Below are positions 31,219 to 33,240 of a stretch of 64,000 bases of DNA, in pieces. The notes under the pieces are model-generated. The model saw only the letters and a list, made by a program, of their open reading frames with translations. It was not told the origin of the DNA and searched no databases. Within the stretch, counting starts at the first letter, position 1; each line of letters begins with the position of its first letter. The stretch is taken from assembly GCF_054482595.1 (NCBI RefSeq), contig NZ_CM137008.1; one strand, given 5' to 3'. The position numbers were made by a program, and so were the translations under genes.

Positions 31219-31247
31219 TGCCCCCTCATGATGAGGGGGCTTTTTTT
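31219..31247 (+). terminator. Intrinsic terminator after yehA
   Basis: gccccctcat / atgagggggc stem followed by ttttttt; the T-run overlaps the rcnB stop codon on the opposite strand. Confidence 0.7.
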
Positions 31248-31584
31248 AGCGATGATAAAAAATCTCACCGTCGTAGGCTTTAATGATTTTACCGTCGGTG
31301 TCGCTGATCAACACGTACGCGCCACCCATATAGGTCCAGTGGGTTCCGGCGTCAGGTGCGGGCAGGTTACGTAACTGCCACTGCTTAATGTTGTACTCAT
31401 CGGTTCGGTACATCTCTGGGACGGTATCACCTGGTTTGAAATGCTTAAAGTCAGCAATGAAACTACTTAACTCATACTTAGAAATTCCCGAGGTATTGGT
31501 CGAACCCGCGGTGGCTGGTGCGGCCCAGGCGGCACTGGTAACCAGCAAAAGCGCACCCAGCAACATCTTATTTTTAATGGTCAT
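31246..31584 (-). CDS. rcnB: RcnB (YohN), periplasmic protein modulating Ni/Co efflux (112 aa)
   Basis: ORF trimmed to MTIKNKMLLGALLLVTSAAWA (signal peptide); lies downstream of rcnA. Confidence 0.8.
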   Translation of the reverse strand: MTIKNKMLLGALLLVTSAAWAAPATAGSTNTSGISKYELSSFIADFKHFKPGDTVPEMYRTDEYNIKQWQLRNLPAPDAGTHWTYMGGAYVLISDTDGKIIKAYDGEIFYHR

Positions 31585-31802: not shown

Positions 31803-32627
31803 TTATCGCATTATGCCCATGAATCCATGTACGCCCATATACACACCAACTAAGCCAATCAACAGACTGGAAAAATAGGGGGCGCGTTTAGCGAGAGTGT
31901 TAAATCCGCTCCAGCGTTTTGCGACCTGCTGAACGCTGATTGCTGCGCCAACGCCTACGGTGACAAGCGTTAACGCCAGGCCAATGCTGAAACTGACGAC
32001 CAGTGTTGCGCCCAGTGTCTGGGCTTTCAACTGAATGCATATCAACAGCACGGTAATTGCTGCAGGGCAGGGGATAAGGCCACCGGTTAAGCCAAATAAC
32101 AAAATTTGCCAGTTGGTGACCTCTCTACCATCAAAGCGTCGTTTAATGTCATTGGCATGGGCTCGTGCATGGGCATCCTGATACTCGCCATGTTCGTGAT
32201 GGTGATGATGTCCTTGGTCGTGGTGATCTTCGTGATCGTGGTGATGATGCTCATGATCATGCTCGTGCATATTCTCCAGCCAGTTGCGTTCGCCGCGCCA
32301 GGTACGCCAGAACATCCAGAACGCGGTGCTAATAATGATCACTGCGGAAATCAGCTGGAGCCACGGTTCTGCTGATTGAGCAGTAAAGCGCTTACTGATC
32401 ACCATCCCGCCAAAGGCAATCAACCAGACCACCGCGGTATGCGAAATGGTTGCTGCCAGTCCGAGCATCACCGCCTGTTTAATGGTGCCTTTGATGGCGA
32501 TGATAAACGCCGCCATCATCGTTTTTGAGTGCCCTGGTTCCAGGCCATGAAGCGCACCAAGTAAGATGGCGCTGGGGATGAAGAACCAGGCGTTTCCTTG
32601 CTGAAGAAGAGTTGTAAATTCGGTCAT
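31803..32627 (-). CDS. rcnA: Nickel/cobalt efflux transporter RcnA (274 aa)
   Basis: Six-TM-like protein with a His-rich loop HEHDHEHHHHDHEDHHDQGHHHHHEHGE. Confidence 0.9.
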   Translation of the reverse strand: MTEFTTLLQQGNAWFFIPSAILLGALHGLEPGHSKTMMAAFIIAIKGTIKQAVMLGLAATISHTAVVWLIAFGGMVISKRFTAQSAEPWLQLISAVIIISTAFWMFWRTWRGERNWLENMHEHDHEHHHHDHEDHHDQGHHHHHEHGEYQDAHARAHANDIKRRFDGREVTNWQILLFGLTGGLIPCPAAITVLLICIQLKAQTLGATLVVSFSIGLALTLVTVGVGAAISVQQVAKRWSGFNTLAKRAPYFSSLLIGLVGVYMGVHGFMGIMR

Positions 32628-32664
32628 GATAATAATTCTTAGTATTAATTCGGCAATCCGATTC

Positions 32665-32701
32665 TACTCCCCCCCCCAGTACCTGATACTACCCCCCAGT
32701 A
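32665..32701. promoter_or_regulatory. RcnR operator: two TACT-(C/G tract)-AGTA sites in the divergent rcnA-rcnR intergenic region
   Basis: tactcccccccccagta (32665-32681) and tactaccccccagta (32687-32701); matches the recalled RcnR operator architecture. Confidence 0.7.
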
Positions 32702-32749
32702 GATTAATAGTGCTATGATTTTTCATGTTCTTGTTAACCAGGTGTTGCC

Positions 32750-33022
32750 ATGTCTCATACAATCCGTGATAAACAGAAACTGAAAGCGCGTGCCAGTAAG
32801 ATTCAGGGCCAGGTCGTGGCGCTCAAGAAAATGCTCGACGAGCCGCACGAATGCGCTGCAGTTTTACAACAGATTGCTGCTATCCGTGGCGCGGTAAACG
32901 GTCTGATGCGGGAAGTGATTAAAGGTCATCTAACGGAACATATCGTTCACCAGGGGGATGAGCTAAAACGTGAAGAAGATCTGGATGTCGTTCTGAAGGT
33001 GCTGGATTCATATATCAAATAA
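32750..33022 (+). CDS. rcnR: Ni/Co-responsive repressor RcnR (90 aa, CsoR/RcnR family)
   Basis: 90-aa protein divergent from rcnA. Confidence 0.9.
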
Positions 33023-33104: not shown

Positions 33105-33240
33105 TCATCGCAACCAAACGACTCGGGGTGCCCTTCTTTGTGAAGGCTGAGAAATACCCGTATCACCTGATCTGGATAATGCCAGCGTAGGGAAGTCACG
33201 GACCACCAGGTCATTGCTTCTTCACGTTATGGCAGGAGCA
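33105..33240 (+). ncRNA. TPP riboswitch (THI element) in the thiM leader
   Basis: Contains ctcggggtgcccttctttgtgaaggctgagaaatacccgtatcacctgatctggataatgccagcgtagggaa, matching the recalled thiM THI-box aptamer; the platform reaches the SD ggcaggagc. Confidence 0.85.

Follow-up and report, generated by a model that had tools for sequence, protein, structure and literature searches.

Two adjacent inverted repeats with long C tracts lie between the divergent genes rcnA and rcnR of Escherichia coli, and they raise the question of whether they are the operator of the RcnR repressor and, if so, what is to be made of the nine-residue tract in one of them. We analysed the locus within a 64,000-nucleotide stretch of DNA, referred to here as the window (contig NZ_CM137008.1 of RefSeq assembly GCF_054482595.1). 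A preliminary description, made from the letters alone, had placed the repeats within a span that proved to be exactly the rcnA-rcnR intergenic region, as delimited by the open reading frames of the window and by RefSeq annotation of identical or near-identical genomes. The genes and their shared gap are as follows:

31246-31584, minus strand: rcnB, accessory periplasmic protein, downstream of rcnA (Pfam PF11776; coordinates mapped from RefSeq annotation)
31803-32627, minus strand: rcnA, Ni/Co efflux protein of 274 aa, intact (open reading frame; Pfam PF03824, NicO)
32628-32749: control region between divergent rcnA and rcnR, 122 bp long against 120 bp in K-12 (open reading frames and RefSeq annotation)
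32750-33022, plus strand: rcnR, Ni(II)/Co(II)-responsive repressor of 90 aa, intact (open reading frame; Pfam PF02583)

Beyond rcnA lies rcnB, and beyond rcnR lie thiM and thiD. The same DNA carries the RefSeq labels rcnR and rcnA in thousands of E. coli genomes, and the window's RcnR is 100% identical to that of the E. coli species representatives; the protein (WP_000019944.1) is common to K-12, APEC37, and GF66.1, the latter two of which carry the window haplotype over a 261-bp query. The gene for the cognate repressor (CsoR/RcnR family, PF02583) adjoins the repeats, and its target efflux gene, rcnA, is present by Pfam.

Several features of the neighborhood vary among relatives or stand apart from the repeats. 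RefSeq annotates a TPP riboswitch upstream of thiM in related genomes, at a place that corresponds to approximately 33114-33210 of the window, between rcnR and thiM (position mapped from the SA31-1 locus, L089). In GF66.1 (locus L096, 2193-3067), a site-specific integrase gene stands after rcnR where thiM and its riboswitch would otherwise be; some relatives have thus acquired an island at this spot. The rcnA gene is 825 bp long in the window and K-12, 852 bp in O157 NE92, 846 bp in SY3626, and 849 bp in PS2Canimalfeces12, which suggests repeat-length polymorphism in the His-rich loop of RcnA (window ~32200-32290).

The repeats themselves, with the linker between them, are:

32665-32681: site 1, the rcnA-proximal RcnR site, TACT-CCCCCCCCC-AGTA (TACT-C9-AGTA), a +2 length variant of canonical TACT-C7-AGTA (sequence and alignment)
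32669-32677: C9/G9 homopolymer tract, the length-polymorphic element of site 1
32682-32686: linker CCTGA, 5 bp, between site 1 and site 2 (sequence)
32687-32701: site 2, the rcnR-proximal RcnR site, TACTACCCCCCAGTA (TACT-A-C6-AGTA), canonical, with C6 at 32692-32697

Both paired C-tract repeats were thus found where they had been described. Each has exact TACT and AGTA half-sites, and in each an unbroken G/C tract of at least 6 runs between the half-sites (C9 and C6). The spacer from TACT to AGTA is the canonical 7 bp in site 2 and 9 bp in site 1, off the 7-bp rule. This pairing is more than chance: the 10-mer common to both sites, CCCCCCAGTA, has two copies in the window, one in each of these repeats, where shuffled sequences gave an expectation of 0.05, and the pattern TACT-N5-12-AGTA has nine matches against 2.07 expected. 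No homopolymer in the 64 kb exceeds the C9 run; G/C runs of 8 are absent, and those of 7 number only two.

According to later papers (PMC3902906, PMC7055735, PMC5146963, citing Iwig and Chivers, 2009, J Mol Biol 393:514), apo-RcnR has two TACT-G6-N-AGTA sites in the rcnA-rcnR gap, where RcnR tetramers repress both divergent promoters until Ni or Co releases them; as far as these accounts go, apo-RcnR binding and Ni/Co release were established on the K-12 C7 sequence only. [quoted passage not shown] Since the reverse complement of site 2, TACTGGGGGGTAGTA, equals the published TACT-G6-N-AGTA exactly, the window repeats can be identified with this operator, as the RefSeq labels and Pfam families (PF02583 and PF03824) of the flanking genes and the placement of the published motif in this very intergenic region bear out. 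We regard it as almost certain that the two repeats are the known tandem RcnR operator, which lies in the control region that the divergent rcnA(B) and rcnR promoters have in common. The claim that they match the RcnR architecture holds for site 2 and fails for site 1, which misses the published motif because its spacer is 9 bp rather than 7; the window therefore carries a length variant and not the canonical arrangement.

Compared with the K-12 operator, the window is equal in locus, genes, repressor, TACT/AGTA dyads, 5-bp linker, and site 2. It differs in the site 1 tract (9 vs. 7), in the distance between the half-sites of site 1 (9 vs. 7 bp), and in the spacing of the two tandem sites, which stand 22 rather than 20 bp apart from start to start and 21 rather than 20 bp from center to center. 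Among related systems, the E. coli FrmR operator at Pfrm (ATAC-N9-GTAT; PMC5146963) shares with that of RcnR a paralogous repressor, tandem type-1 sites, a G/C-rich core, and AT-rich dyads, although the centers of the FrmR sites are 31 bp apart. Written as TAC-T-C7-A-GTA, the canonical RcnR site shares the N9 geometry of the FrmR site (PMC5146963), whereas site 1 of the window is TAC-N11-GTA and fits neither. We considered whether C9 turns site 1 into an FrmR-like operator and rejected the idea on this ground. The type-2 operators of CsoR, which belongs to the same protein family, likewise combine shape readout of G/C tracts with GTA dyads; however, they have two short, interrupted G/C tracts, bind two tetramers per site, and respond to Cu (PMC3902906), whereas the RcnR operator has an unbroken tract, one tetramer per site, and a response to Ni/Co.

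To place the 9-bp spacer in context, we aligned the region from 80 species representatives with a gene for an RcnR relative, drawn from Escherichia, Citrobacter, Salmonella, Raoultella, Kosakonia, Rahnella, Hafnia, Erwinia, Edwardsiella, and Morganella plus one Vibrio. Of 78 species, 75 had a site 1 spacer of 7 bp; one species had 6 bp and two had 8 bp, and a spacer of 9 bp was absent. Site 2 was exactly conserved in most of the 62 species in which both sites were found, with a 7-bp spacer in 61 of them, and the start-to-start distance between the sites was 20 bp in 59 of the 62. The linker was conserved in length across species and variable in sequence. On the IncHI2A plasmid pEC-IMPQ (locus L097), the one plasmid read, the operator is also canonical (C7 / A-C6).

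Two further observations came from these comparisons. In Kosakonia, Phytobacter, and a soil Proteobacteria MAG (loci L056, L059, L063, L064, and L071), site 2 is followed ~20 bp downstream by a third element of degenerate form, AAACT-C7-AGTT, so that the bearers of this element have three phased C7 tracts upstream of rcnR. In addition, an rcnR-rcnA module ~76% identical to the chromosomal one is carried on ~420 plasmids, mostly conjugative, of Enterobacter, Salmonella, Klebsiella, and others; published work describes rcnR-rcnA in the setting of mcr-9 plasmids.

The alignment also allowed the likely promoters to be located relative to the operator. Literature full text and the ROSE supplement yielded no mapped rcnA or rcnR transcription starts, and the following elements are therefore inferred from conservation only:

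32661-32666, minus strand: putative rcnA -10 hexamer TAGAAT, overlapping the outer half-site of site 1 (cross-species conservation)
32711-32719, plus strand: putative rcnR extended -10 TGcTATGAT, 9 nt downstream of site 2 (a TG-TAnnnT block kept across species)

On the rcnA strand, all 62 species have TAnnnT at the hexamer over site 1, and 45 of them have TAGAAT. A simple two-hexamer promoter scan did not return the rcnR extended -10; its minus-strand candidate, TTGCCG-16-TATTAT (32656-32629), was rejected as the main rcnA promoter since it ends 2 nt before the rcnA ATG and leaves no leader, whereas the TAGAAT hexamer keeps TAnnnT throughout. No convincing rcnA -35 appeared at any tract length: with a 17-bp spacer, C7 gives 2 of 6 matches and C9 gives 3 of 6, and no variant exceeds 3 of 6. 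On this layout, site 1 would cover the rcnA -10 together with its spacer, and site 2 would occupy the upstream portion of the rcnR promoter. A block at the rcnA start and leader (32627-32645), separate from the operator, was also kept across genera in the cross-species alignment; it reads CATGAGAATnATTCTTAG in most species and CATGATAATAATTCTTAG in the window, holds an AGAAT-N-ATTCT inverted repeat in many species, and in E. coli opens with GATAAT, which resembles a Fur-box hexamer. This block might serve as a further regulatory site or as a signal for translation.

The preliminary description had proposed a comparison of tract lengths across E. coli genomes, naming an invariant length among the things that would speak against it. 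We therefore queried 5,426 complete E. coli genomes with 64-67-bp sequences differing only in tract length and counted full-length exact matches. Counts are relative to the ~5,336 genomes with full coverage, and ~300 more genomes differ elsewhere in the probe and are untyped; for C7, C6, and C8, approximately nine partial alignments per raw count (the band at or above 99% identity) were subtracted, while the C9 figure is a direct count of full-length exact rows. The site 1 alleles were distributed as follows:

C7: ~4,804 genomes
C6: ~117 genomes
C8: ~96 genomes
C9: 18 genomes

The length is not invariant, and C7 is found in ~95% of typeable genomes. Aligned with the C9 of the window, K-12 NCM3722 and O157:H7 have C7, O121 has C8, 2015C-4944 has C6, and APEC37 has C10. 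C8 appears to have reached fixation in the O121 clone, and C6 to have done so among O111 strains; C6 also turns up in a few O157:H7 and K-12-derived genomes whose clone-mates are C7. The suggestion that the tract is prone to slippage was thus upheld insofar as lengths of 6-10 occur, but not as a picture of ready change, given that about 95% of typed genomes are C7 and the remaining lengths have become fixed in particular clones. Our literature searches found no report of rcnA tract polymorphism or of an experimental-evolution change in this operator; tract length is not addressed in PMC5709419, and operator terms are absent from PMC4528141. In antibiotic-evolved E. coli, a single-nucleotide indel in the frmR regulatory sequence arose in six populations (PMC4079197), and this may, by analogy, be a parallel case of slippage in the G/C-tract operator of a paralogous CsoR/RcnR-family repressor.

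Considering that homopolymer lengths are readily miscalled, we asked whether the C9 of the window is real and inherited. Ten complete genomes, of human, chicken, and pig origin, match the window without a difference over 261 bp; counting these and APEC37 (C10), 10 of 11 window-haplotype genomes have C9. Only about ten genomes reach at least 99% identity over 25 kb, and the eight listed are all C9, or C10 in APEC37. The nearest outgroup, Z1323CEC0014 (98.1% over 25 kb), has C7 and is without the single-nucleotide change that accompanies the C9 allele:

32659: lineage-specific SNP linked to the C9 allele; the window has C, and every other E. coli examined has T

This position falls 2 nt downstream of the putative rcnA -10, in the discriminator region, and among the sequences examined the change is confined to the window lineage. 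A look-up by exact RcnA led to a draft NCBI assembly and to the Logan assembly of run SRR23529590, both of which carry C9 and the linked SNP. Since C9 extends across the haplotype, the outgroup has C7, and the allele recurs in the draft and Logan assemblies, we conclude that C9 is a derived +2 expansion of the ancestral, nearly universal C7, stably inherited within one E. coli lineage; replication slippage is the origin that we infer. That the allele is real and inherited is, on these comparisons, very probable.

Homopolymer errors are plain elsewhere in the data set. Singapore EVA genomes have C9, C9 plus a C7 in site 2, or C11, on different haplotypes. Three of ~5,271 genomes, MS1170, 64EVA, and 21EVA (loci L091, L095, and L098), have an additional A in rcnR (codons 67-69, window ~32950-32956) that changes CCAGG, a Dcm motif, to CCAAGG, and the same three have over-long operator tracts (C9, C9, and C11). 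This shared 'frameshift' is most simply explained as a systematic long-read basecalling artifact; the less simple alternative is a genuine rcnR null allele that travels with tract expansion. C9 genomes outside the lineage were accordingly downgraded as a sign of recurrent origin, and the EVA and MS1170 genomes were not counted as independent origins because their long-tract calls look artifactual. The window itself might by the same token be a misassembled C7, but this would require an error perfectly tied to one 25-kb haplotype, in many hosts and, where recorded, several countries, yet missing from the nearest outgroup and repeated in both a draft assembly and the Logan assembly of a public run; we give this explanation scarcely any weight.

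Two other C9 genomes have damaged genes at the locus. In SY3626_hybrid (locus L092, 1591-2537), rcnR is divergent, with C35Y replacing an invariant metal-ligand cysteine and an IS1 in its 3' end, and the repressor appears to be decaying beside the expanded operator. In SA31-1 (locus L089, 644-1468), rcnA has an internal stop, W115*, which arises from a substitution and is therefore unlikely to be a homopolymer error.

Taken as a whole, the locus is best explained as the RcnR tandem operator with a lineage-inherited C9 expansion at site 1, a reading to which we assign a probability of roughly 0.85. As to what the expansion may do, RcnR is thought to read the TACT/AGTA dyad together with the A-like shape of the G-tract, and binding of Ni or Co frees it, whereupon the efflux genes are turned on. 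Two additional base pairs would shift one half-site by ~6 Å and ~70 degrees from its partner, setting the half-sites, taken as TAC...GTA, at N11 instead of N9. They would also lengthen the stretch between the likely rcnA -10 and the upstream promoter DNA. The predicted outcome is weaker occupancy of site 1 by RcnR and, with it, a raised basal level or an altered induction threshold of rcnAB, with little change expected at site 2 or in rcnR autoregulation. No compensating change is seen in the repressor, since RcnR is identical to that of C7 strains. Judged from sequence, the chance that C9 has a measurable regulatory effect of this kind is about even.

The main alternative is that C9 is neutral: RcnR would tolerate spacers of 6 to 9 bp, perhaps by way of site 2 and DNA wrapping, and regulation would be unchanged. 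Type-1 sites across the wider family do have spacings of 6 to 9 bp (PMC3902906), the center-to-center distance changes just from 20 to 21 bp, and there are successful clones in which C6, C8, or C9 has been fixed. Since the C6 (O111), C8 (O121), and C9 lineages all keep intact rcnR and rcnA, off-length spacers must be tolerated at least in the short term. However, the homopolymer is slippage-prone, and still the spacer is 7 bp in nearly every species and 9 bp in none, just as C7 is kept by the great majority of typeable E. coli genomes; this predominance argues for purifying selection on length. We consider neutrality possible, at well below even odds. The opposite view, that C9 was selected, is more doubtful still. 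It would make the rcnA-proximal G-tract a mutational 'tuning knob', at which slippage resets the spacing (6, 8, 9, or 10 bp) and each length may bring a heritable level or threshold of Ni/Co efflux, with C9 favored for partial derepression of rcnAB and higher Ni/Co tolerance in a human- and livestock-associated lineage. The allele is indeed derived, fixed, and linked to the promoter-proximal SNP at 32659, and the damaged rcnR or rcnA of SY3626_hybrid and SA31-1 hints at changing selection. Nevertheless, the lineage is small (~11 complete genomes), drift or hitch-hiking accounts for the fixation equally well, and the damaged genes are equally compatible with relaxed selection; selection of C9 thus seems improbable.

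A tract of this kind could also be a contingency locus, its length switching reversibly and at high frequency so that rcnA expression phase-varies within populations. Spacer tracts of Neisseria are phase-variable promoter homopolymers. The phase-variable promoter tracts of Bordetella pertussis (PMC1891110) resemble the window in having a G/C homopolymer between promoter elements, changeable in length by slippage. At rcnA-rcnR, the run of nine G/C within promoter and operator, the range of lengths from 6 to 10 across genomes, the C10 of one member of the C9 lineage, and the few O157:H7 and K-12-derived genomes that depart from their clone-mates would all suit such a locus. Unlike the Bordetella tracts, however, this one gives no sign of frequent reversible switching: alleles track lineages (C8 in O121, C6 in O111, C9 in the window haplotype), C7 dominates overall, and high-frequency variation among close isolates of one clone was not found. 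The scattered deviations are as homopolymer sequencing error would give, and are indistinguishable from it; moreover, E. coli is mismatch-repair proficient, and the literature searches brought up no report of switching here. One dominant length with the others fixed in clones therefore indicates rare slippage followed by stable inheritance rather than phase variation, which we judge very unlikely.

The operator itself is textbook knowledge, and what is new is a rare, genuine, lineage-fixed +2 variant of a near-invariant Enterobacterales spacer. For work on such variants in general, homopolymer lengths and Dcm-motif 'frameshifts' in long-read-only assemblies can mimic regulatory variation, and lineage-level or short-read confirmation is needed. 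The alleles C6, C7, C8, C9, and C10 form a natural series in the spacing of one pair of half-sites, in the operator of a repressor believed to recognize the shape of a G-tract. They thereby offer a natural experiment on how strictly CsoR/RcnR tetramers depend on dyad spacing and tract length, and they bear on whether some E. coli lineages run a different set-point of Ni/Co efflux.
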